Of a stretch of DNA of 64,000 nt, positions 108 to 15,725 are shown piece by piece. The DNA is from Minisyncoccota bacterium. GTDB lineage: Bacteria; Patescibacteriota; Minisyncoccia; Moranbacterales; UBA2206. A program made the translations under genes and the position numbers. The stretch is from positions 6,511 to 70,510 of the forward strand of contig JARLIA010000011.1 of the NCBI GenBank assembly GCA_031291955.1. Direction: 5' to 3'. Below the pieces are notes generated by a model, which did no database searches, had not been told where the DNA came from, and saw only the letters and a list, made by a program, of their open reading frames with translations. The number at the start of each line of letters is the position of its first letter. Position 1 is the stretch's first letter.

Positions 108-848
108 ATGTTTCAAAAACTTCTTTCCAGAATGTCCAGAAAGGCTGTGGCCGGCCTGGTCTTCGGCGTTATGCTGGCTTTGGGCGCCCTTATGGCCATC
201 GCTTTCACTGAACCGTCCACTTCTCCTTCCAGCATGCAGGAACCCCTTAATTCCAGTTCTACTGGCAATCTCAATAACGAAAAAAACGGCTCCGGGTCGG
301 GGACGAATGACACGCCGTACACGCAAATCCTGGGCGGCGTGGATGATTATAATAATAACTCCACGATGCCAAGCGACACGTATTCCGCCTCTTGGACGAC
401 GTGTAATTCCGGAAACAGTTATTGCGGCACGGGCGACGCGACCAATGCCAACAAGCAAGATCCCAACACCGGCCTGACCTGGTCGAACTGGCTTGATTCG
501 GGGAACAGCCACGACTGGTTTTGGGCCAACAACTGCGCGGAACCGGGGAGCGCCAGCGACCCCGGCACGTGCGTCAACAATGGAGACGCGGCCTGTCAAT
601 GTGTGAAACTGACCAGCTCAAAAACCGGTTGTGAAGCGCTGAGCGGCTGGCGCCTGCCATATCAGAAAGAACTGATGCAATCCTATATTGACGGATCCTG
701 GGGAAATCTATCTTCGGCTAACTACAGCTATTGGTCGTCTACTACCAACTCGTACAATACCCAGAGTGCTTGGTTCGTGTACCAGAACTACGGCAACACG
801 AACTACAACATTAAGACGGGTACCACTAAAGTCCGGTGCGTCCGTTAG
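108..848 (+). CDS. DGR target protein: N-terminal signal/TM segment, Ser/Thr-rich linker and C-terminal DUF1566 (Lcl C-terminal, C-type-lectin-like) domain carrying the variable region
   Basis: 246 aa. Hydrophobic N-terminus AVAGLVFGVMLALGALMAIAF. Motifs GLTW, WRLPYQKEL, YWSSTT and terminal KVRCVR are typical of DUF1566. The last ~45 codons are repeated at 2363-2513. Confidence 0.75.
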   Translation: MFQKLLSRMSRKAVAGLVFGVMLALGALMAIAFTEPSTSPSSMQEPLNSSSTGNLNNEKNGSGSGTNDTPYTQILGGVDDYNNNSTMPSDTYSASWTTCNSGNSYCGTGDATNANKQDPNTGLTWSNWLDSGNSHDWFWANNCAEPGSASDPGTCVNNGDAACQCVKLTSSKTGCEALSGWRLPYQKELMQSYIDGSWGNLSSANYSYWSSTTNSYNTQSAWFVYQNYGNTNYNIKTGTTKVRCVR

Positions 849-860
849 TCTTGTGGCAAC
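709..860 (+). repeat. DGR variable region (VR), including a conserved 3' end that runs ~12 nt past the stop codon (IMH-like)
   Basis: Direct repeat of 2363-2513. Differences are concentrated at positions that are A in the TR copy. Confidence 0.7.
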
Positions 861-906
861 GATTTGGTGATTTGATCATTCGGGTGATTTGGTTATTTGA
901 ATTATT

Positions 907-949
907 TAAGGTTCAACCTTTGGCTAGCCAAAGGTTGAACCTTAGGAAG
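907..949. repeat. 48-bp perfect palindrome family (cttcctaaggttcaacctttggct|agccaaaggttgaaccttaggaag), copy 1; outer 5 nt of the left arm absent
   Basis: Self-complementary; followed by cctcttt then ATG of the KilA-N ORF. Confidence 0.8.
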
Positions 950-956
950 CCTCTTT

Positions 957-1718
957 ATGACAAAAAGAAAAAAAGAAATAAACATAAAAGGCACGATAGT
1001 AGCTTTCTTTTCCGAGAAGGATAATGATTTTATTTGTTTGACTGACATGGCGAAATTCAAGGCTTATGATAGCGGAGTCGTTATCTCCAATTGGCTGACC
1101 ACGAAATATACCGTACAATTTATGGGCGCATGGGAACAATTGCATAATCAAAATTTTAATCTTATGGAATATCATAAGATTAAAAATGAAGTTGGCACCA
1201 ATGGGTTTATCGTTTCTTCGTCTATGTGGATCAGAAAGACAAATGCCATAGGCATTAGATCCAGCGCGGGCAGATATGGCGGTACTTTTGCTCATAAAGA
1301 CATCGCTTTCGAATTTGCAACTTGGCTCTCTCCGGAGTTTAAGCTTTATTTGATCAAAGAATTTCAAAGGCTGAAGATTGAAGAAAATGACCGGCTGACG
1401 CTTGGCTGGGATACAAAAAGAATGCTGACAAAAATAAATTATCGCATCCATACTGATGCGATCAAGGCTCACATAATTCCTAGCCGTATTTCAAGGGTTC
1501 AGGAAAATAATGTATACGCGAGCGAAGCTGATGTTTTAAATATGGCTTTATTTGGAATGACGGCGAAAGTTTGGCGAGACAAAAATTCAAAACTTGCGGG
1601 AAATATACGGGATTACGCGGATGTGACACAATTGGTCTGCCTGTACACGCTTCCTAAGGTTCAACCTTTGGCTAGCCAAAGGTTGAACCTTAGGAAGCCT
1701 CTTTATGGCTCGCTATAA
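957..1718 (+). CDS. KilA-N domain protein; C-terminal 20 aa encoded by read-through of palindrome copy 2
   Basis: 253 aa. GTFAHKDIAFEFATWLSPEFKLYLIKEF resembles the KilA-N/APSES DNA-binding core. AGGAAG lies 7 nt upstream of the ATG. Confidence 0.55.
   Translation: MTKRKKEINIKGTIVAFFSEKDNDFICLTDMAKFKAYDSGVVISNWLTTKYTVQFMGAWEQLHNQNFNLMEYHKIKNEVGTNGFIVSSSMWIRKTNAIGIRSSAGRYGGTFAHKDIAFEFATWLSPEFKLYLIKEFQRLKIEENDRLTLGWDTKRMLTKINYRIHTDAIKAHIIPSRISRVQENNVYASEADVLNMALFGMTAKVWRDKNSKLAGNIRDYADVTQLVCLYTLPKVQPLASQRLNLRKPLYGSL
1650..1697. repeat. 48-bp perfect palindrome, copy 2
   Basis: 24-bp arms with no loop; identical to 4306-4353; followed by cctcttt then ATG of avd at 1705. Confidence 0.85.
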
Positions 1719-2064
1719 CCACCTTCTTGTTTTCCAGCGGTCTTATGACTTGAATCTGGAAATATATCGCACGACCCACAATTTCCCTCGGGAATATAAA
1801 TATAGTTTGGGACAAAAAATGAAAGAAATTTCCGCGGAACTTTTGGATTGGATCGTGGTGACCAATTCCCAAAAAGACAAGACGCCCTATTTTTCCAAAA
1901 TAAAAATGCAGATCGAAAGATTGCGCATCCAGATCCGGGTGGCGTATGATTTGAAAATAATCAAAAGCCAAAGATTGGAATTTTTGAACCGGATCATCGA
2001 AGAAATTTCCATGCAGGTCAGTGGCTGGGAAAACTGGGCGAAGACTCAGGATGCAAAGGCTTAG
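1705..2064 (+). CDS. avd: Avd-like accessory variability determinant (four-helix-bundle protein family)
   Basis: 119 aa. N-terminal LLVFQRSYDLNLEIYRTTHNFPREYKYSLGQKMKE matches the four-helix-bundle / 23S-IVS protein family that includes DGR Avd. Lies between VR and TR. Confidence 0.7.
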   Translation: MARYNHLLVFQRSYDLNLEIYRTTHNFPREYKYSLGQKMKEISAELLDWIVVTNSQKDKTPYFSKIKMQIERLRIQIRVAYDLKIIKSQRLEFLNRIIEEISMQVSGWENWAKTQDAKA

Positions 2065-2084
2065 GCTCTAAGAGCCTAAGCCTT
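2056..2084 (+). terminator. Perfect hairpin (13-bp stem, 3-nt loop) overlapping the avd stop codon; no U-tract
   Basis: aaggcttaggctc-taa-gagcctaagcctt. The core ggctctaagagcc is related to the boundary repeat core. Confidence 0.35.
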
Positions 2085-2362
2085 TGGGTTTCCGCGCTCG
2101 GTTCCCAGTTCTTTGAAAATTTAGAGAAGAAGATTTGGCGAAGCCAGAATTTTTATTTCGATTTCGGCCTGACAGTCGGGACAAATAAAAAGAGAGCATC
2201 GAATCGTTGCGGTTCCGCCTGCTTGATGGCGTTGGTTTTTGGAAAAGTTCGTTTCGATAAAAAAATATCAAACGCGCGACTGGCGTCAAGAGCATTAAGT
2301 TGCTTTGAACCATACTCAATTTCGGTTGAGATTGGTTCAGTTGAGGAAAAATGGTGGAATGA

Positions 2363-2513
2363 TATCTTCGGCTAACAACAACTATTGGTCGTCTACTACC
2401 AACTCGAACAATACCCAGAATGCTTGGAACGTGAACCAGAACAACGGCAACACGAACAACAACAATAAGACGAACACCAACAAAGTCCGGTGCGTCCGTT
2501 AGTCTTTGGCAAC
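2363..2513 (+). repeat. DGR template repeat (TR), AAC-codon-rich
   Basis: ~151-bp direct repeat of VR. Encodes an N-rich pseudo-peptide (NNNYWSSTTNSNNTQNAWNVNQNNGNTNNNNKTNTNKVRCVR). 14 adenine positions differ from VR. Confidence 0.75.
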
Positions 2514-2628
2514 TATTCACTTTTTACCGCTGGCAATGCTGGCTTCGCCAAGCCTTTTTCGGGAAAAATTTCCAAGCAAAAAACCCGCTTGCGCGGATTT
2601 CTTGACGAGCACCAACTGGTGCAGGACT

Positions 2629-2769
2629 CGGACTTGTCATTCCTATGCAGTAATACTAGCAGAGAATGGAAAATATGTCAAATTTGGTTATTCACACGAT
2701 TGTGGAGATGAGGGGAATCGAACCCCCGGGCTCTGGAATGACAAGTCCGAACCCGCACCAAGCCATCCC
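2629..2769. other. Structured region between TR and RT, including a minus-strand tRNA-like acceptor/T-arm minihelix
   Basis: 15-bp inverted repeat (2629-2643 cggacttgtcattcc / 2735-2749 ggaatgacaagtccg) encloses a T-arm-like hairpin. The minus strand of 2702-2769 folds as GGGGAUG...GGGGGUUCGAUUCCCCU-CAUCUCC-A with no anticodon arm. Its T-arm is identical to that of tRNA-Glu at 59094. Confidence 0.35.
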
Positions 2770-2815
2770 CACAACGAAAATATCATAACACAAAAATAAG
2801 CAAGCGGCAAAAAAA

Positions 2816-3938
2816 TCATTTTTTAACTCTAAAATAATAAAAATCAAGGGACGATGGTTCAAGATAAGATTTCAACACGCCGAAATGTCTGGTGTAAAGC
2901 GACTTTCGCAGGCGCACCGTGTCGGCATGGCGGAATTGACCGTAGTAGGAATTTATGACGGATAAAATATTCTGAAGATCTTTTTGGAAAGTTTCCGGAG
3001 AATCGGGGAGGGGAGAATCGTTAAATTTTTTCAGCTTTTCTTTGAGATGGTTCACCACTCTTCGTCGGATGAGAGAATAGCCGGGCTTTATGATAAACCC
3101 GACAAAATTAATTCCACGACAGACGGATTGTTGGACGGATTTTCTCGGATGAAGAGTGAGTTGCAGTTCTTTTTTCAAAAAAATATCGATTCGTTTTTTC
3201 CAAATTTGAAGCTGGCGGGGATTTTTGCCAATCAAGATAAAATCATCGACATAGCGCAGATAAAATTTCACCCCCAAATCGTGTTTTACGAATTGATCGA
3301 GCCGATTGAGATATATATTGGCGAAAAACTGGGAAGTCAAATTGCCGATCGGAAGCCCCCGATCGGGCGAAATCCTAAAAAGGGTTTTGTTTTTAGGAAT
3401 GAGTTTGGCCAGATTCGGGTTGCCTTTGCGATAATAATTTTTGGTCGGATCGTGAAAAATTATTTTTTCGGCCAGCCATAAGATTTCCGGATTTCTTACC
3501 TGTTTTTTTGATGGCCGCGAAAAGAATATTTTTATTGAGCGACATAAAAAAAGCGGCAATGTCCATTTGGAGATAATGAGCGGGATGGGAAAAATTTTCA
3601 GTGGCGGTTCTTAAGGATTTTTTGAGATATTTTATGGCGATGTGAGAACCTTTGCCTTTTCGGCAGGCGAAAGAGTGAAAAATGAATTTTTTTTCGAAAA
3701 TCGGTTCCAGATAGCTGACGAGCAGGTGATGGACAATCCTATCGCGAAAATCAGCGGCGAAAATTTCGCGCGGCTTGGGAATAGTTACCACAAAACAAAT
3801 GGATTGCCCGGGATGATAAACGCGGTCTTGAAGCTCGCGTTCCAGTTTCAAGAGTTCATATTCAAAATTTAGCTCGATTCTGGCGGCATTGGCGGTTTTT
3901 CTTTTCCGTTTTCGGCAATCGTGATAGGCTTTTAACAA
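2816..3938 (-). CDS. DGR-type reverse transcriptase, interrupted by a +1 frameshift at the T7 run 3504-3510
   Basis: N-terminal ORF (3393-3938) has RDRIVHHLL, SFACRKGKGSHIA and LQMDIAAFF (RT motifs 1-3). C-terminal ORF (2816-3559) has GLPIGNLTSQFFANIYL, YLRYVDDFILIG (YxDD), GINFVGF and SYYGQFRHAD. Removing one A from the A7 run on the coding strand gives a continuous ...AAIKKQVRNPEILWLAEK... Confidence 0.8.
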
Positions 3939-3982
3939 ATTTTGAAAAGTAAAATAAGTAACGGCGCAAGATTTTGCGTCGC

Positions 3983-4004
3983 CTCTCTCTCTCTCTCTCT
4001 CTCT
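3983..4004. repeat. (CT)11 dinucleotide microsatellite in the divergent RT / transposase promoter region
   Basis: Uninterrupted ctctct... tract 45-66 nt upstream of the RT ATG (minus strand) and ~115 nt upstream of the transposase ATG. Confidence 0.9.
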
Positions 4005-4119
4005 CGATTTCCGAAATTATTTTTTCCTCCTCCATTTTTTGTTTTTCTATGTTATTATAATAACACAGTCAAAAAAAGAGCTAAACAAAAAAAACAGACC
4101 TCGGAGGTCTGTCAACCAA

Positions 4120-4794
4120 ATGAGAAAAACCGAGTTTGCCAACGAGGAATACTATCATATTTACAATCGCGGGGTAGACAAGCGGGAAGTGTTTGGCCAT
4201 GCCAATGATTATGAAAGATTTTTGCTTGGTATGGATTTGTTGAATGACGAGGATGACGGACTGATGCTTCTTTGGAGGGACTTGCACAAAAATGGGGCGG
4301 CCGGGCTTCCTAAGGTTCAACCTTTGGCTAGCCAAAGGTTGAACCTTAGGAAGCCTCTCGTTGATATCATCGCTTATTGTCTCAACCCCAATCATTATCA
4401 TTTCATCTTGAAGCAAAATAAAGACAAGGGGATAGAAAAATTTATGCAAAAATTGAGCACCAGCCATACGATGTATTTCAATAAAAAATATCAGAGAAGC
4501 GGCGCGCTATTTCAAGGCCGGTATAAATCCATCCACATCGACTCCAATGAATATCTGCTGTATCTCTCGTGCTATGTCAACGCCAATCATTTCATTCACG
4601 GGTATAATAGTGTTGAGGACTGGCCATATTGCAGTTATCCGGATTATCTCGGCAAAAGAAACGGAAAATTGTGCGGCAAAGAAATGATACTCGGGCAGTT
4701 TGACAATGATTTTTCCCAATATGAAAAATATCTGAATGACAACGCGCTCCACTTCAAAGAGAAAAAGGAAATGGAAAAATATATCTTGGAATAA
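4120..4794 (+). CDS. HUH tyrosine transposase, IS200/IS605 TnpA / REP-associated (RAYT-like, COG1943) family, with an in-frame palindrome insertion
   Basis: YHIYNRGVDKREVF, AYCLNPNHYHFIL (HuH) and ALFQGRYKS (catalytic Tyr context). Start taken at MRKTEF. The 48-bp palindrome 4306-4353 is translated in-frame as LPKVQPLASQRLNLRKP between the N-terminal motif and the HuH motif. Confidence 0.75.
   Translation: MRKTEFANEEYYHIYNRGVDKREVFGHANDYERFLLGMDLLNDEDDGLMLLWRDLHKNGAAGLPKVQPLASQRLNLRKPLVDIIAYCLNPNHYHFILKQNKDKGIEKFMQKLSTSHTMYFNKKYQRSGALFQGRYKSIHIDSNEYLLYLSCYVNANHFIHGYNSVEDWPYCSYPDYLGKRNGKLCGKEMILGQFDNDFSQYEKYLNDNALHFKEKKEMEKYILE
4306..4353. repeat. 48-bp perfect palindrome, copy 3 (inside the transposase CDS)
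   Basis: Identical to 1650-1697. Confidence 0.9.
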
Positions 4795-4831
4795 AAGGCT
4801 GCAAGAGCCAAGCTCCTTAATGATGGGAGTT

Positions 4832-4881
4832 AGGCTCTAAGTGCCTGGAAAAATTTTAACATTGCTTGGCACTTAGAGCCT
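4832..4881. repeat. Inverted-repeat hairpin (14-bp stem aggctctaagtgcc / ggcacttagagcct, 22-nt loop); right boundary repeat of the DGR module
   Basis: Lies between the transposase stop and the giant gene start; the left arm plus loop is the reverse complement of window positions 1-28. Confidence 0.6.
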
Positions 4882-4887
4882 TGAAGA

Positions 4888-7800
4888 GTGCGTAAAGTAA
4901 AAGAATTAAAAAAAATTAAAGTGACCTCCAAAACAAAAATTATTTTATACTCCTTGGCTTTTTTCCTGATCTTTTTGGGTTTTTCCGGCAATGCCAATGC
5001 CGCTCAAATTGGCAACACCATCGATTGGGCCTGGAGCGGGCAGTTGGGATGGATCCATTTTAACGGCAGCGCAGCCACGCCGGATTATGGCGTGACGACG
5101 ACCGACGGCACTGGTCTAACTGGCTATGCCTGGAGCGAAAAAGGCGGCTATATCAAATTTTCCGGCACTTGTTCGCAAGCCGGCGGATGCCCGGGCGGAG
5201 GGAATACATATCAAGTGACAGCTTCCGGCACGTGCGCAGTTGGTCGGGAATGTCTTTCCGGCTGGGCTTGGGGAGCGGGAATCGGCTGGATCCATTTTGC
5301 CGCCAGCGGTTCAAACTATGCCAACAATTCCAATACCACCTACGGCGTCTATATCGATTCCCAAGGATTTTTCAGGGGCTACGCCTGGAATGACCAATTC
5401 GGCTGGATCCATTTCGGTGGAGCGTGTACCGGAGGAGTTGGAACTTGCCTGAATGGAGAAGCGACTTACGCGGTTCATGAAGGTCCTAAAAACGTCTACT
5501 ATTCCGTCGGCCAATCGGTGTCCAATCTCATGACCGGTTCGCCGACGATGAATCTGACGAGTGGCGTGGCGACTTTTTCCGTGGCGCAGACGGGAAACAT
5601 CGGGGTGGGCGACCGGGTGACGTATAACACTTCCAGCGTCGCTTACATTGCATCGAAAACCGACTCGACCGGGACTGATTGGCAACTGGTGACGGCCACC
5701 GGCGGAACGCCGGCGGATGTCTCTGTCGCGACGGTCAATTCCATCACCCACGAATACACTTCACTTGCGGCGGCGATTGCCGGAGCCACAGACGTCAACC
5801 ATCTCAACAACACCGATCTCACAGTCGCCAACGTGGTTTTGAATATTCCTTGTTATTATGATTCCGGATCGGACACGACAGCGGTGACGGTTTCCGGCTA
5901 CACGACTTCGGCGGCGGATTACATCAAAATTTACACGCCGTCCAACACAACTACTTATCCGGCTGAAGCCAATAATTCGCAGCGGGCGATGGGGAAGTGG
6001 GACGCGACGAAATATAATCTTCAAGCAGGGGCTTCGTCATCCAGTCTTTTGAATATTCTTGTTCCTGATGTGAAAATTGACGGGCTGCAATTATATCAAT
6101 CGGTAGGATATTATTCATCTGTAGTAGGATTGAATAGCAGCGGTGTTGTCAATCTCAGTGTGTCTAATAGTATTATAAGAGCATTCAGTGGCAATACAGG
6201 AAATTATGGCATAATTATTGAAGGCGGAAGCACTGGAAGTGTTTATAATATTTACAATAACATTGTCTATGGGGCGAGTTATGATTCTGGGTGTAATGGC
6301 CTAATGGTTGAGAATAGTTCGGTGTTTTTGTATAACAATACCTTTTACGGCAACTATACGGGAATTTATGGCTATAGCGGCACACTTATAGCTAAAAATA
6401 ACATTGTCTATAACAACACCACCGACTATTCCGGCTCATTCGATTCTTCTTCCACTAACAATTTGAGCAAAGATGCGACTGCGCCGGGGTCTAATGCGGA
6501 AATAAATCGGACCGTCCAATTCGCCAACGCCGGCGCCAATGATTTTCATCTTTCCCTTGCCGACACGGCCGCCCTGGGACACGGCGCGAATCTCTCCGTC
6601 GATACCAATTTTGCTTTCGATACTGACATTGACGGCCAAACGCGACCGACGATATGGGACATCGGAGCGGACCAATCCGCCACGGCGATATATTATTCCG
6701 TTGGGCAAAATACCAACGATCATTCTTCTGGCGGGAATGTTTCCATCTCTTCCGGCGAAGCGACTTTTGACACGCCTCAAACGGCGACGAACTTGGGCGT
6801 GGGAGATGTGCTCACCGCCGGAGGCAACGCTTATTACATTTCCAAAAAAATCGACACTTCCCATTGGGATGTTATTACGGCTCTTGGCGCGACGCCGGCG
6901 GATTTATCTTCCACATCGGTTACCTCCATTACTCACGCCTTCGCGTCTTTGGAAGGTGCGGTCGATGCCAGCACTGCCTCTGGCGCGTTCGACAGTTCGC
7001 ATCTCAACACCAAAGATCTGGTGGCGAACAATTATCAATTGAATATTCCTTGCTATTACGATACCGGTGCGGACACGACAGCGGTGACGATTTCGGGATG
7101 GACAACAGGCGCTTCCAATTACATTCGTATTTACACGCCGAAGAGTCTGACGACGGAAGCCAATTTTTCGCAAAGGGCGACGGGTAAGTGGGATAATTCG
7201 AAATATTCAATTTCAGCCAATGCTAACGTTATTTATGTGCAGATTGAAAATGTCCATGTAGACGGGTTGCAAGTCGAACTTAATCCAACATCAGATGATG
7301 GATATTTAGGAATAGGAGTAAATTCCCAATCATACATCATCGATGGGTTTGAAGCTTCAAATAATATCGTTAAACAGACAACTCAAAAAGTTGATGCGTA
7401 CGGGGTAATTTGTTATACAGGAGCATCTACTTGTAAAATATGGAATAACATTGTTTATGGCTTTAGTTTAGGATCGGCAGGAAGAGGGTCTATTTTGGTG
7501 GGCGGGTCAAGCAGTACTGTGGCCTATGTTTACAATAATACGACCTATGGAAATTATATCGGAATACAGGAATTGGCAGGCGGGGAAATATTTCTCAATA
7601 ACAATCTTTCATACAATAACGGGACCGACTATGACGGCTCTTTCGATCCGTCTTCCACCAACAACTTGAGTAAAGACGCGACTGCGCCGGCCTACGGGAC
7701 GTATTATCGTAACGCGACGGTAACTTTCGTTGACGCTACGAACGATGATTTCCATCTGGCTTCCACCGATACGGGAGCGATTGGCAACGGCGCGAATTTG

Positions 7801-10800
7801 ATCAGCGACACTTATTTGCCTTTTTCCACTGACATCGACGGCCAAACGAGACCGGCGACGGGAGCCTGGGATATCGGGGCGGATGAAAGCACTAGCAGGG
7901 TCTACTATTCCGTCGGTCAATCCGCCAGCAATCTCATGACCGGCGCGCCGACCATGACCATGGTTTCCGGCGCGGCGGTTTTGTCGGTGGCGCAGACGGG
8001 AAACATCGGGGTCGGTGATCGGGTGACTTACAACACCTCGCAAATCGCTTACATCGCTTCCAAAACAGATTCATCCGGCACCAAATGGAATTTGGTGACA
8101 GCTCTCGGCGCGACACCGGCCGATGTGACGACGGCCGTGACTGTCAATTCCATCACGCACGAATACACTTCGCTTGCCGCGGCGATTGCCGGCGCCAGCG
8201 GCGCCAACCACATCAACAATCTCGATCTTACGGCCGCCAACGTGGTTTTGAATATTCCTTGCTATTATGATTCCGGCCCGGATACGACGGCGGTGAATGT
8301 TTCCGGTTTCACAACCAGCGCGACAAACTACATCAAAATTTATACCCCCCACATCACAACTACTTATCCGGCCGAAGCCAATTTTTCGCAGAGGGCGATG
8401 GGGAAGTGGGATAATGGGAAGTATAGTTTGGAAGTTTCAGGTCCTTGGAAAAACGCGATTGATAATAATGTAATTTATACCCAGGTTGTCGGCTTGCAAA
8501 TCAGCCTGGCAAACGCCGCTGGTTTTGTCGGGGATATCCGCGATGATGCCGGCGGACTTATGGCCAGCTTTAATTTAATCACGGGAGACGACACGGGATA
8601 TGGAATTATAAGCGGAACTTATATATACAACAATATAATATATAACTTTCCAAACAACTATGGAATTTATATCACCTCGGGTTATGTTTATAATAATACT
8701 GTTTATAATGCGGGTATTGCATACGCTTGGTCAGGCGGTAACGGAACATTTTTAGAAAATAATATTGCTCAAGATACGGTAACTGGATATAGCAATAATC
8801 CTCCGGGTGCCAACAATCTTTCCGATCACGCCGACGCGCCCGGGTCCAATCCGCAAAATTCCAAAACCGTCCAATTCGCCGACGCGGCCAAGTCTGATTT
8901 CCATTTGAGCCCGAATGACTCGGTCGCGCGGGGAGCAGGAACAAATCTTTCCGCCGATTCCAATTTAGCGTTCAACACCGACATCGACGGCCAAACCAGA
9001 CCAGCCACAGGCGCTTGGGACATCGGCGCCGACCAATCCGCCACAGCCATATATTATTCCGTCGGCCAAAATACTTCCGATCACAAAACCGGCACGCCAA
9101 CAGTGACGATTGCCGGAAACGCGGTGACGTTCAGCACGGGCCAGACGGCCACCAATATGGGAGTGGGAGACAAAATTACTTATACCGTGAGCTTGACCAA
9201 CTATTCTTGCTATATTACTTCAAAGACATCCACCGACGGCACCGGCTGGATGTGCGAAACGGCCACCGGTGGCACGCCGACCGCCGCGCCCGGTGGTTCG
9301 GCTGTCGTTTCCATTACTCACGCGTTCAGTTCTCTCAATGCGGCCGTCTCCGGCGCGTCAGGCGCGAGTTATCTCAACACTTCGGATTTATACACCAACA
9401 ATTACCAATTGAATTTTCCTTGCTACTACGATTCAGGCCCGGATATGACGACGGTGACAGTTGGCGGTGGCTACACAACGGCCGAGCCGAACTATATTAG
9501 AGTTTATACGCCGTATAACACAATAACGGAAGTGAATCAGTCACAAAGAGCGATGGGGAAGTGGGATAATTCTAAATATAACGCCAGCGGATATATAAAT
9601 TTAGGGACAAACTATGTATGGATTGATGGTTTGCAAATTGTAAATTATTCATCCGGCGGCTATCCTTCGGCAATCGAGGCGAATGGGACTGCCACTCTCG
9701 GTCTTCGAGTATCCAATAGTATCATTTTTATGGACACTTCGGGAACGGCTAGTGGCACAGGAATTAAATCGGGCGCTTCGATGACGGTCTGGAATAATGT
9801 TATATATATGGCAAATACTACCAGTGCGGGGATGTATTTTAGCTACGGTAAATTTTATATTTACAACAATACGGTATATGGAGGAAGCGACGGAATTAGC
9901 GGTGCAAACCTTGGCGAAGTAATGTATGCCAAGAATAACCTTTTTTATGGTAATAATCTTGATTATCACGGCGCGTTCGACTCTTCTTCCACCAACAACT
10001 TGAGCAAAGACGCCACCGCGCCGGGCAGCAATCCGATAAACTCAGCCACCGTAAATTTTGCCAACGCGACGGCCAATGATTTTCATCTTTCCCCCACTGA
10101 CACGGCCGCATTGGGACACGGCGCCAATTTGAGCGCCGATTCCAATTTAACGTTTAATACCGACATTAATGGCAACAGCCGCGGGAGTTTTTGGTCGATC
10201 GGGGCGGATAATGGACCAGTGGCGACCATTAACGCGCCGCACGCGACAAACACCAGCGCCAGCACCGGATTGGATTCGGGTCTCGTCGGCTACTGGTCGT
10301 TTGACGGTCCGACCATTTCCGGGACAACAGTGAAAGATCTCTCCGGCCAAAACAACAACGGAACCAACTCCGGCGCCACGCCGACTATTGGGGCGCGGGG
10401 GCAGGCATTGAGTTTTGACGGGACGAGCAGTGGTGTCGCAACTGGTAATATATACCCAACCGGAAGCGGGGTTTCTTATGCTTTTTGGATGAAAACACCG
10501 CAAACGACTAATGCTATGCCTGTTATGGGTTGGGGATATGATCAATGTTGGGTCAGTAACGTAGGTTCGCATAAAATCAACTGCACTAATGATGGCGGAG
10601 GTTATGACGGAGTGACTTCCAGCATTAGCGTGGATGACAATAAATGGCACTTTATTGTTTTTGCTTCAGCGGGTGGAAGCAATGGAACCGTGACGCTTTA
10701 CGTGGATGGACAAAATCAGGGCAGCAACACTGAGACGCTAGGCATATCAAACGATTTTGCTATAAAATGGGGTTCGGTAGGATTCGACAGTCGCCACTAC

Positions 10801-11592
10801 GCCGGAGCACTTGATGAAGGCAGGGTTTATAATCGCGTTTTGTCGGCGGCTGAAGTGAATGACCTTTATCATCTCGGCGGGCAAACCGTCGGCGCGCCGC
10901 AGGCGGCGACGGGACCGACTTCCGGACTGGTGGGTCACTGGACGTTTGACGGCCCGACCATTTCCGGCACAACCATTGCCGACACCAGCGGGAGCGGCAA
11001 CAACGGCACCAACAATGGCGCCACGCCGGTGATGGGGAAATTGGGGCAGGCGATGAGTTTTGACGGGACGGATGATTATGCGTGGATAAACAATTCTAGT
11101 GCTCTTGATTTTGGCTCCGGAGATTTTTCCGTTGGGATGTGGGTGAACAAAAAGGCGAACTCTTCTGGTTGGAGTAATACTTTCGGTGTGAATAAATGGA
11201 ATACCGGAGAATCTCCTGGTACAAATGAATGGGGTCTTAACCTTACTAATGCCGGAAATGATAACACTTTCAGCTTTAATATCGAAGATGGAGCTACAAC
11301 ATATTCCGTTGCCGATACGACCATTTTTCTCTTGAATAAATGGTATCACGTGGAGGGCGTTAAATCGGGAAGTTATTTGTATATTTATGTAGATGGAGTT
11401 TTGAAAAATTCAAATAACATAGGCAGTCATTCTGTTAACAATGTTGGGGATGCTATCCAGATTGCGAGAAATGGAGGGGGGTCGATTCACTATACGAAAG
11501 CCGATTTCGACGATGTCCGCGTTTATAACCGCGCGCTGTCGGCGCAAGAGGTGGGGGATTTGTATCAGGCGGGAAGTGTGACGATGAAATAA
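4888..11592 (+). CDS. Giant secreted surface protein (2234 aa): signal peptide, four tandem ~400-aa parallel beta-helix-like modules (ABAB) and two C-terminal LamG (concanavalin-like) domains
   Basis: N-terminal KTKIILYSLAFFLIFLGFSGNANA. Repeated NNIVYG / NNTFYGN / DIGADQ beta-helix signatures. C-terminal LVGYWSFDGPTISGTTVKDLSGQNNNGTN and LVGHWTFDGPTISGTTIADTSGSGNNGTN are LamG-like. Confidence 0.85.
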   Translation: MRKVKELKKIKVTSKTKIILYSLAFFLIFLGFSGNANAAQIGNTIDWAWSGQLGWIHFNGSAATPDYGVTTTDGTGLTGYAWSEKGGYIKFSGTCSQAGGCPGGGNTYQVTASGTCAVGRECLSGWAWGAGIGWIHFAASGSNYANNSNTTYGVYIDSQGFFRGYAWNDQFGWIHFGGACTGGVGTCLNGEATYAVHEGPKNVYYSVGQSVSNLMTGSPTMNLTSGVATFSVAQTGNIGVGDRVTYNTSSVAYIASKTDSTGTDWQLVTATGGTPADVSVATVNSITHEYTSLAAAIAGATDVNHLNNTDLTVANVVLNIPCYYDSGSDTTAVTVSGYTTSAADYIKIYTPSNTTTYPAEANNSQRAMGKWDATKYNLQAGASSSSLLNILVPDVKIDGLQLYQSVGYYSSVVGLNSSGVVNLSVSNSIIRAFSGNTGNYGIIIEGGSTGSVYNIYNNIVYGASYDSGCNGLMVENSSVFLYNNTFYGNYTGIYGYSGTLIAKNNIVYNNTTDYSGSFDSSSTNNLSKDATAPGSNAEINRTVQFANAGANDFHLSLADTAALGHGANLSVDTNFAFDTDIDGQTRPTIWDIGADQSATAIYYSVGQNTNDHSSGGNVSISSGEATFDTPQTATNLGVGDVLTAGGNAYYISKKIDTSHWDVITALGATPADLSSTSVTSITHAFASLEGAVDASTASGAFDSSHLNTKDLVANNYQLNIPCYYDTGADTTAVTISGWTTGASNYIRIYTPKSLTTEANFSQRATGKWDNSKYSISANANVIYVQIENVHVDGLQVELNPTSDDGYLGIGVNSQSYIIDGFEASNNIVKQTTQKVDAYGVICYTGASTCKIWNNIVYGFSLGSAGRGSILVGGSSSTVAYVYNNTTYGNYIGIQELAGGEIFLNNNLSYNNGTDYDGSFDPSSTNNLSKDATAPAYGTYYRNATVTFVDATNDDFHLASTDTGAIGNGANLISDTYLPFSTDIDGQTRPATGAWDIGADESTSRVYYSVGQSASNLMTGAPTMTMVSGAAVLSVAQTGNIGVGDRVTYNTSQIAYIASKTDSSGTKWNLVTALGATPADVTTAVTVNSITHEYTSLAAAIAGASGANHINNLDLTAANVVLNIPCYYDSGPDTTAVNVSGFTTSATNYIKIYTPHITTTYPAEANFSQRAMGKWDNGKYSLEVSGPWKNAIDNNVIYTQVVGLQISLANAAGFVGDIRDDAGGLMASFNLITGDDTGYGIISGTYIYNNIIYNFPNNYGIYITSGYVYNNTVYNAGIAYAWSGGNGTFLENNIAQDTVTGYSNNPPGANNLSDHADAPGSNPQNSKTVQFADAAKSDFHLSPNDSVARGAGTNLSADSNLAFNTDIDGQTRPATGAWDIGADQSATAIYYSVGQNTSDHKTGTPTVTIAGNAVTFSTGQTATNMGVGDKITYTVSLTNYSCYITSKTSTDGTGWMCETATGGTPTAAPGGSAVVSITHAFSSLNAAVSGASGASYLNTSDLYTNNYQLNFPCYYDSGPDMTTVTVGGGYTTAEPNYIRVYTPYNTITEVNQSQRAMGKWDNSKYNASGYINLGTNYVWIDGLQIVNYSSGGYPSAIEANGTATLGLRVSNSIIFMDTSGTASGTGIKSGASMTVWNNVIYMANTTSAGMYFSYGKFYIYNNTVYGGSDGISGANLGEVMYAKNNLFYGNNLDYHGAFDSSSTNNLSKDATAPGSNPINSATVNFANATANDFHLSPTDTAALGHGANLSADSNLTFNTDINGNSRGSFWSIGADNGPVATINAPHATNTSASTGLDSGLVGYWSFDGPTISGTTVKDLSGQNNNGTNSGATPTIGARGQALSFDGTSSGVATGNIYPTGSGVSYAFWMKTPQTTNAMPVMGWGYDQCWVSNVGSHKINCTNDGGGYDGVTSSISVDDNKWHFIVFASAGGSNGTVTLYVDGQNQGSNTETLGISNDFAIKWGSVGFDSRHYAGALDEGRVYNRVLSAAEVNDLYHLGGQTVGAPQAATGPTSGLVGHWTFDGPTISGTTIADTSGSGNNGTNNGATPVMGKLGQAMSFDGTDDYAWINNSSALDFGSGDFSVGMWVNKKANSSGWSNTFGVNKWNTGESPGTNEWGLNLTNAGNDNTFSFNIEDGATTYSVADTTIFLLNKWYHVEGVKSGSYLYIYVDGVLKNSNNIGSHSVNNVGDAIQIARNGGGSIHYTKADFDDVRVYNRALSAQEVGDLYQAGSVTMK

Positions 11593-13055: not shown

Positions 13056-15725
13056 ATGGAAAATGAAATCAACCGCAACGAAGGCGAGCGCCCGGTGAAT
13101 ATTAATCTAAGAAGCGAAGTTCAGCGCGGCGTGCCGGTTCGGCCAATGGGAAATTTCGCGTCTCGCGTGCGGGCGGCGGAAGCGCCACGGCGCGAAGTTC
13201 GGGCGGAAGCTGGAGCTGACAAGAAAGACAAAAAACTCTTGGTCAAGATGCTTGACCGAGTGATCGGTCTTTCTATTTTCGCCATTTTTTTCGGTGTGCC
13301 GCTTTATTTTACCGGGACGGCTTCGCAGGGGATCATTTTTGAAAAACAGATTTATTTCTATTTTTGGCTCCTTCTGGGTCTGGTCGTTTGGGCGGCCAAG
13401 GGCGTCATCACTGGCGAGATGGATATCCGCCGGACGTCACTCGACATTCCGATCCTCGGGGTGTGGCTGGCGGTGGGACTGGCGACCATTTTTTCGGTGG
13501 ACCGCTGGCACAGTTTTTTCGGGGCGTTTTCTGATCCGTCTCGCGGATTCATGAGCGTCACGGCCTATATCGTTGCTTTTTATCTCATTTTGTCCAATTT
13601 CAATGCCAAGCGCTTGAAGTTGATTCTTTGGGCCATTCTGACTTCCGGCGGCATTCTGATTGTTTGGACGACTTTGGCCATTTTGGGCATCAAGTTTTTG
13701 CCTAATTCTTTGGCCCAGTATGCGCCACTCTCTCTTTCCGGTTCGGTCACTAGTCTCGGAGTGATTTTCGCGGCGCTGGTGCCGCTCATTGCCGTAGTTA
13801 TTATGAAATTTTCCGAAAATGAGGAGATGGCCGCTGTTAAGAAAAAAATATTGACCGGCGGACTAATGCTCATGTTGCTCCTTGATCTCTTTTTGATTTT
13901 GGCGCTTTATAATTATGTTCCTTGGTTGGCTTTCTTTATCGGTGTGGTAATCCTTTTGGTTTTCATCTTGGCGAAAATCGTGCGGCCGAAGGAGTCATGG
14001 ACGTGGCTCCCGATGGTGGTTTTCATTCTGGCGATGGTGCTCCGGATGACCGGCGCGGTCTCGATCGCTCGCGTCAATCTGCCGATGGAGCTCAGCCTTA
14101 ACTATGCGACCTCGACAGCTATCGCCAAAAATAGTCTGTCTCACAAATTATGGCTTGGCAGTGGTCCGGCCACTTATGGCTACGATTTTTCCATGAACCG
14201 TCCGCAGGATTTCAATCTCAATGCTTTCTATAATTTGCGTTTCTTCCAAGGAACGGGCGCGTTTATGGAATCCGCGGCAACCCTGGGTCTTGTTGGCACG
14301 GTTTTCTTGGTCGTCTTAATTTTGGCGTATATCGGTCTGCAATTCCATCTGGTCGCCAAGGATAAGGAAAAGAATAAGCTATATTCTCTGGGTGCCTTTT
14401 CGGCCGCGGCCGTGTTTTTGGTGGCAGTACTGTCCGATCGATCTGGCGGAGTTGATCTTCTGCTGGCTGTCCTCTTCATCGCTTTTGCTTTAGCTGTTTC
14501 TTTTTTGGAATCGGAAAAAGATGAAAATTATCTTAGTTTGAGCCTGAAAGCTTCGCCCAAGTTCGCGCTGGCTTTGGCTTTTGTCTTTATGGTTGTGTGT
14601 GCTGGCGTAGCGTTCCTGTTTGTATTTTTGGGCAAGGTTTACGCGGCCGACATTTTGGCCGGACAAGCGGCGCTTACTCTCAACAAGGATCAAACAACGG
14701 CTCTTGCCGATATGGGGAAAGCCATTAGTCTTAATCCGATGGAGCCCCGGTATTATACCCAGATCGGGCAATACTACATGGCTTTGGCCAATCAAGAGGC
14801 TATGAAAGATCAGAAGACGCGCGATGTAGATAAGATCAAGCAATATCTGAATTTTTCTATCCAGGCCACTACTCAAGCCGAATCAATGGAGTCCAATGAC
14901 GTCGGCGCGGTCGAATCATTGGCGTTGATTTATGAAAATGCTGGTCTCTATGTGCCGGATTCACTGAAGCTGGCCGAGCAATATTATCAAACAGCCCAAA
15001 AACTGGAACCGCATAACCCGGTCTATGACATAAAATTGGGACAATTGGCCATTAGCGAAGCGGCTGGCGGGACAGACAAGAACGCCGCTAAAGCGGCGCT
15101 GACCACCGCCCAAGGTCTTTTCCAAAAAGCGGTTTCGGAGAAGAATAATTACGCCGACGGGTACTATCAGTTGGCCTTGGACGACGAAGCCTTGAATCAG
15201 ATGGATCAAGCAATAAGTAACGGTCAGCAAGCTGTCCAGCTCAATCCGCAAAACTCCAGCTATCTTTTGGCGATGGGACGCTTCTATCAGGAAAGGAACG
15301 GCAGTGGTGACGCGGCACTGGCCGAGCAATATTATCAGGCTGATATTTCTTTGAATGATAAAGACATTAACGGTCATTTCTATCTGGGAATCTTCTATGA
15401 AAAACAGAAAGAATCCGATAAGGCCAAGGAGCAATACAACAAAGTGATCAGTTTGCTTCAGCAGGGTCAGAACAATCAGCAGACCATTGATCAGGTCCAA
15501 AAGATGATCACTAATGTTGACGATGGCGTGGCCAACACGCCCGAGAGTCTGGGATTAGTCCAGCAGAACAATTCTTCTGGCGCATCCGCGTCGGCCGCTA
15601 CCCAAGCCATCTCAGTGCCGGCCAATGCGCCAACCCCGACTCTGAATCAGACCAAGCCGGCGGATAACGCTGTTCCGGCAGGCAATACGAAAACTACTCC
15701 GGCAGCTACGACGACAAAGCCGTAG
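13056..15725 (+). CDS. Polytopic membrane protein, O-antigen-ligase-like core with C-terminal TPR repeats and a Ser/Thr/Pro-rich tail
   Basis: More than 10 predicted TM segments. Several TPR-like repeats: YYTQIGQYYMALANQ, YYQTAQKLEPHNPVYDIKLGQ, AVQLNPQNSSYLLAMGRFYQ. Confidence 0.55.
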   Translation: MENEINRNEGERPVNINLRSEVQRGVPVRPMGNFASRVRAAEAPRREVRAEAGADKKDKKLLVKMLDRVIGLSIFAIFFGVPLYFTGTASQGIIFEKQIYFYFWLLLGLVVWAAKGVITGEMDIRRTSLDIPILGVWLAVGLATIFSVDRWHSFFGAFSDPSRGFMSVTAYIVAFYLILSNFNAKRLKLILWAILTSGGILIVWTTLAILGIKFLPNSLAQYAPLSLSGSVTSLGVIFAALVPLIAVVIMKFSENEEMAAVKKKILTGGLMLMLLLDLFLILALYNYVPWLAFFIGVVILLVFILAKIVRPKESWTWLPMVVFILAMVLRMTGAVSIARVNLPMELSLNYATSTAIAKNSLSHKLWLGSGPATYGYDFSMNRPQDFNLNAFYNLRFFQGTGAFMESAATLGLVGTVFLVVLILAYIGLQFHLVAKDKEKNKLYSLGAFSAAAVFLVAVLSDRSGGVDLLLAVLFIAFALAVSFLESEKDENYLSLSLKASPKFALALAFVFMVVCAGVAFLFVFLGKVYAADILAGQAALTLNKDQTTALADMGKAISLNPMEPRYYTQIGQYYMALANQEAMKDQKTRDVDKIKQYLNFSIQATTQAESMESNDVGAVESLALIYENAGLYVPDSLKLAEQYYQTAQKLEPHNPVYDIKLGQLAISEAAGGTDKNAAKAALTTAQGLFQKAVSEKNNYADGYYQLALDDEALNQMDQAISNGQQAVQLNPQNSSYLLAMGRFYQERNGSGDAALAEQYYQADISLNDKDINGHFYLGIFYEKQKESDKAKEQYNKVISLLQQGQNNQQTIDQVQKMITNVDDGVANTPESLGLVQQNNSSGASASAATQAISVPANAPTPTLNQTKPADNAVPAGNTKTTPAATTTKP

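Follow-up and report, generated by a model that had tools for sequence, protein, structure and literature searches.

The gene at positions 4120-4794 of a 64,000-nucleotide stretch of Minisyncoccota contig JARLIA010000011.1 (hereafter the window) encodes what is apparently a domesticated single-strand DNA nuclease of the Y1 (HUH, histidine-hydrophobe-histidine) type. The protein resembles RAYTs, the tyrosine transposases associated with repetitive extragenic palindromic (REP) sequences. Within its reading frame the gene carries a perfect palindrome, copies of which recur elsewhere in the window and in related genomes of the Candidate Phyla Radiation (CPR, or Patescibacteria). An earlier note on this DNA had called the product an IS200/RAYT-like Y1 HUH enzyme and had placed a 48-bp palindrome, in frame and stop-free over 16 codons (L63-K78), between its N-terminal block and the HUH motif. 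The second statement agrees with the sequence and with the span of the Pfam match, and the first with the domain, active-site, model and structural results given below.

A Y1 (HUH) nuclease with a palindrome-coded loop

The profile search that the earlier note had proposed as a check on family membership gave a Pfam Y1_Tnp (PF01797) match to the protein with an E value of 2.9e-9 (37.5 bits against a cutoff of 23). This match is limited to residues 81-155, corresponding to profile positions 41-120, so the residues that separate the N-terminal YHxxNRG block from the HUH strand are additional to the Pfam model. The residues H92, H94, and Y152 are invariant across 82 homologues. An AlphaFold2 model built with these homologues had a predicted local distance difference test (pLDDT) score of 85.9 and a predicted template modelling score of 0.84. 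When this model was compared with the PDB by Foldseek, the best match was 4er8_A, the Escherichia coli RAYT with its REP hairpin (E 1.6e-6), followed by the TnpA proteins of IS608 and ISDra2, and the top 24 matches were all RAYT, IS608, ISDra2, or other Y1 transposase chains. A sequence search of the PDB with the family profile gave no true match. By its model and its invariant residues, the product of this open reading frame (ORF) has both the fold and the catalytic residues of a Y1 HUH enzyme.

The palindrome-coded residues are the least confident part of the model (pLDDT below 50 at residues 59-66, followed by a short helix at 70-75), which points to a surface loop. In the model this loop, here called site 1, lies between helix alpha-1 and the HUH strand. 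Exact-sequence look-ups of the Y1 protein and of the KilA-N protein of the window returned no record, and no tnpB gene was found near the Y1 gene.

The 48-bp core of the site-1 palindrome, CTTCCTAAGGTTCAACCTTTGGCTAGCCAAAGGTTGAACCTTAGGAAG, occupies positions 4306-4353 and has an exact duplicate at 1650-1697; shuffled sequences are expected to contain none. The core is translated as L63-K78, LPKVQPLASQRLNLRK, and the full 52-bp palindrome, also in frame with the ORF, codes for about G62-P79. By direct reading, one of the three reading frames of the 48-mer is stop-free and each of its halves is a hairpin by itself. As single-stranded DNA the palindrome has a predicted folding energy of -29.2 kcal/mol (z = -9.5 against shuffles). 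It consists of the short hairpin CCTAAGGTT-C-AACCTTTGG joined head to head with its inverse, and by its sequence is a REPIN-like inverted doublet of a ~20-nucleotide (nt) hairpin. The positions of this and the other features are given in Table 1, in which L numbers denote fetched loci of relatives.

Table 1. Features of the window and of related loci. UP, DOWN, and site 1 are the hairpin positions of the Y1 gene family described in the text.
Locus	Feature	Position	Strand	Remarks
Window	RAYT-like Y1 (HUH) nuclease gene	4120-4794	+	224 amino acids (aa); HUH = H92/H94, catalytic Tyr = Y152
Window	Site-1 palindrome	4304-4355		Arms 26 + 26 nt (4304-4329 / 4330-4355), perfect, no spacer
Window	Second palindrome copy	1649-1698		25 + 25 nt, perfect; C-terminal tail of truncated KilA-N ORF, same reading frame
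Window	Third palindrome copy	907-944		19 + 19 nt, perfect; 907-959 with right outer arm GGAAGC + CCTCTTTATG
Window	Non-cognate hairpin ACAGACCTC-G-GAGGTCTGT	4094-4112		Just 5' of Y1 ATG, UP position; contains GGAGG (4103-4107)
Window	Downstream inverted repeat AGGCTCTAAGTGCC / GGCACTTAGAGCCT	4832-4881		22-nt spacer; DOWN position of Y1 gene
Window	KilA-N domain gene, 3'-truncated	957-1718	+	Pfam KilA-N; ends in palindrome-coded tail
L092	Palindromes sharing one inner core	10186-10229, 10760-10805, 13524-13563
L009	Palindrome sharing one inner core	459-504
L093	Full-length KilA-N gene	4019-4849
L096	Full-length KilA-N gene	5001-5831
L097	Full-length KilA-N gene	3341-4171

Age and conservation of the site-1 palindrome

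A protein search identified 4177 homologues, nearly all from CPR/Patescibacteria. The best 120 of these are 210-238 aa long (one partial sequence, P0004, excepted), like the query, so the loop is native in length. The peptide PKVQPLASQRLNL is kept in the closest homologues, and the homologues carry the loop together with palindromic DNA; a native loop free of palindromic DNA, which the earlier note had named as the observation that would count against its proposal, is therefore not what these homologues showed. The palindrome of the window recurs with 100% identity in L005/L007, at 77% protein identity, and in L001 the palindrome is again perfect, two compensatory double substitutions apart. 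A perfect palindrome is present at the same position in 10 of 10 lineages of the clade (WIN, the window's own gene, and L007, L001, L011, L090, L091, L092, L013, L016, and L014), and no empty site 1 was found among close homologues. An identical palindrome-bearing protein, P0001, occurs on 12 contigs, and the four places fetched represent four samples.

In the alignment of these 10 lineages, both sides of 13 of the 25 stem pairs have changed, no pair has changed on a single side, and 95% of the cells are paired. None of 500 shuffles reached the observed covariation values, and sliding the partners by one column destroyed the signal. The 31 changed cells of the conserved stem include neither G-U pairs nor one-sided changes; the sole two G-U cells fall at an outer pair whose partners do not match in three other sequences. 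G-U is normally tolerated in RNA stems, and its absence inside the conserved stem argues for a constraint at the level of DNA rather than RNA. Nucleotide identity to the relatives is 75-96% in the palindrome codons, compared with 65-74% in the rest of the gene and 42-53% at third positions, so the palindrome has stayed perfect while the synonymous sites of the gene are near saturation. As judged from these alignments, the site-1 palindrome is old; paired substitutions have preserved its perfect Watson-Crick pairing, and its conservation far exceeds that of the neighbouring codons.

Protein-level selection on the loop peptide was ruled out as the cause of this conservation by the strict Watson-Crick covariation and the conserved synonymous positions. 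An assembly artefact was also excluded, as the palindromes are internal to contigs, in frame, and recurrent in many independent assemblies.

Hairpins at fixed positions in the Y1 gene family

The genomic loci of 79 homologues with 40-77% identity were fetched; the family sample is made up of the 80 loci most similar to the query. In 49 of 79 distinct genes, site 1 holds the strongest hairpin found anywhere in the gene. These site-1 stems are mostly perfect, 10-26 bp long, and of widely differing sequence; examples are CTTGGAAGC-nnn-GCTTCCAAG, translated as LGSxASK, and GGAGGTTCAACCTCC...GGAGGTTGAACCTCC, translated as GGSTS..EVEPP. When the perfect hairpins of the 80 genes were placed relative to the YH codon, they formed four sharp peaks, with hardly any hairpins elsewhere: the UP peak ~40 nt 5' of the ATG (48 hairpins), site 1 (55 hairpins of 53 distinct sequences), site 2 just 3' of the catalytic-tyrosine helix (19 hairpins), and the DOWN peak at or just past the stop codon (about 52 hairpins). 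The density of perfect hairpins (stem of 10 bp or more) is 1.24 per kb in Y1 genes versus 0.22 per kb in the rest of the loci. The 61 hairpins in ~51.5 kb of Y1 genes, set against ~45 deep in other long ORFs (about 1-1.2 Mb), give an estimated ~30-fold enrichment.

The hairpins of one gene are related to one another. A site-1 hairpin and the flanking hairpins of the same gene have a common 10-mer in 39 of 47 genes, compared with 3.2% of cross-locus pairs. Sharing of site-1 hairpins between genes rises with protein identity outside the loop, from 1.6% at 40-50% identity through 12% at 60-70% and 38% at 70-80% to 67-100% above 80%. On these comparisons, the hairpin sequence and the Y1 protein diverge in step. 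Several genomes hold three or four divergent Y1 paralogues, each with its own hairpin (JBAZBJ01, with L015, L027, and L043; JASEHL01, with L034 twice, L040, and L066; LBYD01, with L024 and L033 twice). Gene position is also shared between relatives. The Y1 genes of the window and L001 adjoin the reverse transcriptase of a diversity-generating retroelement (DGR), and those of L005 and L090 have a Mur ligase gene on one side and murB on the other. The combination of divergent paralogues that have their own hairpins with a syntenic gene position suggests a RAYT-like rather than an insertion sequence (IS)-like gene. In L005 (2212-2883) and L090 (7430-8101) the gaps between the Y1 gene and the surrounding cell-wall cluster are 7-16 nt, an odd place for a transposase-like gene.

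The UP position holds a cognate hairpin in most relatives and a non-cognate one in the window. The latter may sequester the GGAGG ribosome-binding site of the Y1 gene, as in IS200, which makes hairpin-based control of its expression plausible. On the minus strand this hairpin is followed by a T run and is terminator-like there.

Structure and dispersal of the palindromes

The earlier note's view of a REP-like element with other copies was extended by in-frame copies in unrelated genes of a sister genome. On contig Ga0209417_1000485 of this genome the identical 48-mer lies in frame in a valyl-tRNA-synthetase-like (valS) ORF (L006), and a variant lies in frame in murB (L007). As in Rickettsia palindromic elements (RPEs), the same palindrome is therefore found in frame in several unrelated genes (Y1, the KilA-N tail, valS-like, and murB). 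Large ORFs of related loci hold numerous in-frame copies, which use more than one reading frame (~45 cases in long ORFs other than the Y1 genes), and many of these loci have one to four extra copies within 10 kb on either side. The murB copy (L007 4993-5028) replaces a native stretch, with 15 codons compared with 13 in L090 (8107-9042), rather than adding 12-16 codons; this alignment suggests either that a patch was replaced or that an insertion was offset by a matching deletion.

In the long palindromes (44-52 bp), two copies of a short hairpin that also occurs singly in the vicinity are joined head to head. In L013, for instance, the monomer TTCCGAAGGTCGAACCTTCGGAA lies upstream and site 1 holds the doublet; L012, L030, L076, and L091 are similar. 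As in REPINs, then, there is an inverted doublet able to form one long hairpin, and its monomers also occur alone. Other copies have one inner core but different self-complementary outer arms (TCCT/AGGA, AATTC/GAATT, and CC/GG in L092; GAAAC/GTTTC in L009), a pattern that suggests that palindromes grow by inverted copying or enter the tips of existing hairpins. The orientation of copies is random, without the regular alternation of bacterial interspersed mosaic elements. An Rfam search with the palindrome gave only sub-threshold matches to generic, miRNA-like hairpins.

In the window, a 53-bp direct repeat (907-959 / 1655-1707) spans the third and second palindrome copies, an AGGAAG Shine-Dalgarno-like motif, and the ATG of KilA-N or avd, and the right arm of the second copy plus CCTCTTT abuts the avd ATG. 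The AGGAAG motif comes from the palindrome right arm and lies nine nt 5' of both start codons (944-959, 1692-1707), so the repeat may supply the ribosome-binding sites of KilA-N and avd and hide them when folded. The window also contains a second palindrome family, with the core AGGCTCTAAG / CTTAGAGCCT, at 2054-2086 (after avd), at 4832-4881, and at ~19-28; it resembles the hairpins of the L017 Y1 gene, and no second Y1 gene was found within the 64-kb window. A viral collection contained no copy of the main palindrome and one distant relative of the Y1 protein, and on this result a phage origin was dropped.

A probable RAYT-like system with its palindrome inside the gene

Based on the above results, we consider it reasonably probable that the locus belongs to a RAYT/REP-like system of the CPR in which the cognate, REPIN-like palindrome of the Y1 enzyme is embedded in the enzyme's own coding sequence. 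By analogy with the TnpA proteins of IS200/IS605 and with RAYTs, the enzyme would bind the hairpin extruded on single-stranded DNA, nick nearby, and spread or homogenise the copies. The in-gene copy would be a resident cis-site, and because it could not be lost without damage to the gene, enzyme and substrate would be co-inherited and would co-evolve. Translation through the palindrome would produce a disordered, basic loop that is tolerated by the protein, and the perfect symmetry is probably kept at the DNA level, by template switching within the hairpin or by re-copying by the enzyme. The earlier note had also suggested a functional in-gene DNA or RNA structure; such a structure, its function being putative, fits the data better than self-targeting, with DNA favoured over RNA.

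A bolder proposal, which we put forward tentatively and hold to be rather unlikely, is that the embedded hairpins are the working sites of the enzyme, in that the copy in its own gene would be nicked, as by phiX174 protein A, and would act as donor or template for new and homogenised palindromes. Gene and repeat would then be one self-contained replicator with the substrate written into the coding sequence of the enzyme, and the gene, with its four regularly placed hairpins, could also behave as several exchangeable modules. In the phiX174 gene A origin and the pT181 repC origin the nick site lies within the coding sequence of the initiator itself, which favours cis action and co-inheritance. 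These are single-site replication origins of a phage and a plasmid, whereas the CPR gene is chromosomal, has dispersed extra copies, and has a putative nicking activity.

Several observations weigh against an embedded cognate palindrome of a RAYT-like enzyme. The link between enzyme and palindrome is one of co-location and co-variation of sequences. The protein reached 36 bits with the NCBIfam equivalog model REP_Tyr_transpos (NF047646), below its cutoff of 80. Neither a GTAG/CGTC-like tag nor another cleavage motif was found beside the stems, the flanks of 434 hairpins having background composition. The immediate flanks of the window Y1 gene hold other hairpins, not the cognate one. With the equivalog score, the GTAG head, and the cognate flanks all failing at this locus, we call the gene RAYT-like, not a RAYT. 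The palindrome family of the window also looks low-copy, with three copies in 64 kb and five loci in a strict-pattern metagenome scan, compared with the hundreds of copies of classical REPs. Loops of zero or one nt are frequent among the hairpins, and these would fit duplex palindromes or a replicative origin as well as hairpins. Loops are correspondingly shorter in homologues that lack a hairpin, and where a hairpin is present its distance from conserved residues varies; both would fit a function-free gain and loss in a permissive loop. Finally, neutral template switching could keep the symmetry perfect.

Some of these points lead to a different account, in which the hairpins are tolerated passengers. 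A nuclease acting in cis would make most of its insertions in its own gene and flanks, and the in-frame ones in two permissive loops would survive, harmless and without function. The presence of the same palindromes in frame in valS, in murB, and, in about 45 cases, in other long ORFs of related loci fits such an account, as do the shorter loops of hairpin-less homologues, the varying offset of the hairpin within the loop, the random orientation of copies, and the low-confidence loop that the segment encodes. We nevertheless judge it a minority possibility, because site 1 is occupied in all 10 lineages of the clade, even where flanking cognate copies are lacking, with no close homologue that lacks the palindrome, and because the palindrome is still perfect in a gene whose synonymous sites are near saturation. 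In addition, hairpin similarity follows the protein phylogeny, which indicates descent rather than repeated fresh insertion. A recent self-insertion of a REP-like element into this transposase gene, as the earlier note had envisaged, has next to no probability. The exact 50-bp identity between the in-gene copy and the one at 1649-1698 speaks for it and indicates recent copying between at least two sites of this genome, but homologues of 60-77% identity have a homologous palindrome at the same codon position in proteins of the same length, and no empty site was found. The idea that the element recently targeted its own transposase is thus contradicted by a loop that is native in length and by a palindrome that is present, with compensatory changes, in at least 10 diverged lineages.

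The remaining alternatives place the function elsewhere than in the Y1 enzyme's substrate. The ~24-bp stem inside the ORF could act in the mRNA, throttling translation or being cut by RNase III so that the nuclease is kept low, as with the 5' stem-loop of IS200, and the unrelated upstream hairpin of the window may sequester GGAGG. An RNA-level regulator of this kind is improbable, given that the 31 changed cells of the conserved stem lack G-U pairs and one-sided changes, that intergenic and antisense copies, in either orientation, are just as perfect, and that the Rfam matches are generic and sub-threshold. Even less can be said for palindromes serving as duplex operators, that is, symmetric double-stranded sites for a dimeric DNA-binding protein (KilA-N or another regulator) with no relation to the Y1 enzyme. 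Perfect dyad symmetry with 0-1-nt centres is common, and copies lie just 5' of the KilA-N and avd start codons, as would be expected of operators. Such an explanation is highly improbable in view of the separate palindrome of each Y1 paralogue (83% own versus 3% cross matches) and the co-divergence of hairpin and Y1 protein. The symmetry extends over arms of 20-26 bp including the centre, longer than in usual operators, and KilA-N is absent from most of these loci.

Comparison with known systems

REPtrons combine RAYT (TnpA_REP) genes with REP/REPIN repeats (Nunvar 2010, PMC2817692; Bertels & Rainey 2011, PMC3116915; Ton-Hoang 2012, PMC3333891; Messing 2012, PMC3479197). The CPR family has in common with them a Y1 HUH enzyme whose best structural match is the E. 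coli RAYT-REP complex 4er8, a gene that in most members is flanked by its own short palindromes, divergent paralogues of one genome each with its own repeat, the coexistence of monomers and inverted doublets, and a gene position conserved between relatives. It differs in having the cognate palindrome within the reading frame, where it takes one or two fixed positions. The CPR hairpins also lack the GTAG head, their doublets are perfect and spacer-free whereas classical REPINs have a spacer, and their copy number looks low on the counts above. The protein, which fails the RAYT equivalog cutoff, is longer (about 222 aa) and has a helical C-terminal part. In the RAYT/REP literature searched we found no description of cognate repeats inside a RAYT reading frame and no mention of RAYT/REP systems in CPR/Patescibacteria. 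What has already been described are REPs or inverted repeats that flank RAYT/TIRYT genes, sometimes overlapping the gene ends, and in-frame REPs or RPEs in other proteins.

TIRtrons contain TIRYT genes, which encode tyrosine transposases and have inverted repeats that lack GTAG at their flanks (Di Nocera 2013, PMC3733652). Some of these repeats are self-complementary, of moderate abundance, and at times overlap with gene ends (PMC3733652). The CPR genes are likewise Y1 genes bordered by GTAG-less repeats; the overlaps in PMC3733652 are confined to gene ends, whereas the CPR copies are internal, in frame, and at conserved loops.

The mechanism proposed above has precedents, as recognition of single-stranded hairpins is established for IS200/IS605 TnpA (PMC3201880, PMC3597680) and E. 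coli TnpA_REP is active in vitro (PMC3201880, PMC3333891, PMC3479197). The catalytic fold and the hairpin-gene-hairpin architecture are shared with IS608 and ISDra2 of this family. The CPR genes differ in that they were not observed as repeated identical units, keep a syntenic position across diverged genomes, and have no tnpB, and their palindromes are perfect and symmetric while the IS hairpins are imperfect, subterminal, and accompanied by guide tetranucleotides. The window Y1 gene is without cognate end hairpins, and the same locus is occupied in a relative with a 77% identical protein.

RPEs and intragenic REPs are in-frame palindromic repeats in functional protein genes (Ogata 2000, via PMC3733652; Di Nocera 2013). 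They share with the CPR copies in valS, murB, and many long ORFs the properties of being short palindromes, stop-free, in frame, and translated as the same peptide in either orientation. The difference is that the preferred host gene in the CPR is the putative mobilising enzyme itself and that the sites are fixed across the family; the likeness to RPEs is one of arrangement.

Implications

For bacterial mobile DNA that is long-lived and passed on vertically, REP/RAYT systems provide the main example, and how RAYTs spread and maintain their repeats is still unclear. The genes described here would constitute a large CPR family with a physical fusion of enzyme and substrate, the repeat lying in frame at conserved sites and co-diverging with the protein. 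The family offers a natural pairing table, with dozens of enzyme-hairpin pairs from which specificity determinants might be read. The results further show that ultra-small CPR genomes have REP-like palindromes capable of entering proteins in frame, with consequences for gene calling and for protein-family alignments in these organisms. Should the embedded copy prove to be a nick or donor site, a selfish or domesticated element would here have a new means of ensuring that its two parts are inherited together.

The KilA-N gene and the retroelement neighbourhood

The earlier note had described two further palindrome copies as flanking a neighbouring cassette. The copies do flank the KilA-N gene, but this gene is 3'-truncated by about 45 codons and is not an intact cassette. 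KilA-N homologues are ~275 aa long (270-280) and cover 90-92% of the query, compared with homology of the window copy to residue ~229 only; at the nucleotide level, blastn homology stops at window position 1642. In the syntenic locus L001, KilA-N and palindrome are both absent from the interval that separates the variable-region gene from avd. From this comparison and the truncation of KilA-N into the palindrome, the palindromes mark rearrangement junctions rather than the ends of an intact cassette. Full-length KilA-N genes lie directly 5' of avd in three CPR DGR loci (Table 1). The family has at least 8000 matches and 70-89% identity, with Moran-, Peregrini-, and Roizmanbacteria among the source names, and KilA-N may be an unrecognised DGR accessory gene or a mobile gene that targets DGRs. 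The idea of KilA-N plus palindromes as a mobile cassette was weakened by the truncation and by the regular position of KilA-N beside avd in palindrome-free CPR DGRs. A role of the palindrome as the target-recognition hairpin of the DGR was ruled out, since the syntenic DGR of L001 lacks the palindrome and copies occur in DGR-unrelated genes.

The DGR that adjoins the Y1 gene extends over 108-3938 and includes an Lcl_C-domain target gene (108-848) and bAvd (1705-2064). Its template repeat (2363-2504) and variable repeat (709-850) differ at 15 positions, 13 of which are template adenines. The reverse transcriptase (3938-2816, minus strand) is split over two frames, with the shift near a run of seven A on that strand (window ~3490-3520), and its L001 counterpart is intact (364 aa); the split is either a homopolymer assembly error or a real frameshift that inactivates the DGR. 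Between the template repeat and the reverse transcriptase, at ~2700-2730 on the minus strand, is a tRNA/tmRNA-like 3' end (T arm and acceptor strand, GGGGGUUCGAUUCCCCUCAUCUCCACAA) that may be the remnant of an integration site; it scored 35.6 bits with the Rfam tmRNA model, below the cutoff of 47, and ARAGORN predicted no gene there. A (CT)n run of about 11 units (3983-4006) lies in the intergenic region that separates the divergently oriented reverse transcriptase and Y1 genes. Just 3' of the Y1 gene, an ORF of 2234 aa (4888-11592) has a signal-like N-terminus and contains several long internal repeats, and it looks like a typical giant surface protein of the CPR; the relatives at this position have beta-helix and Laminin_G_3 domains.

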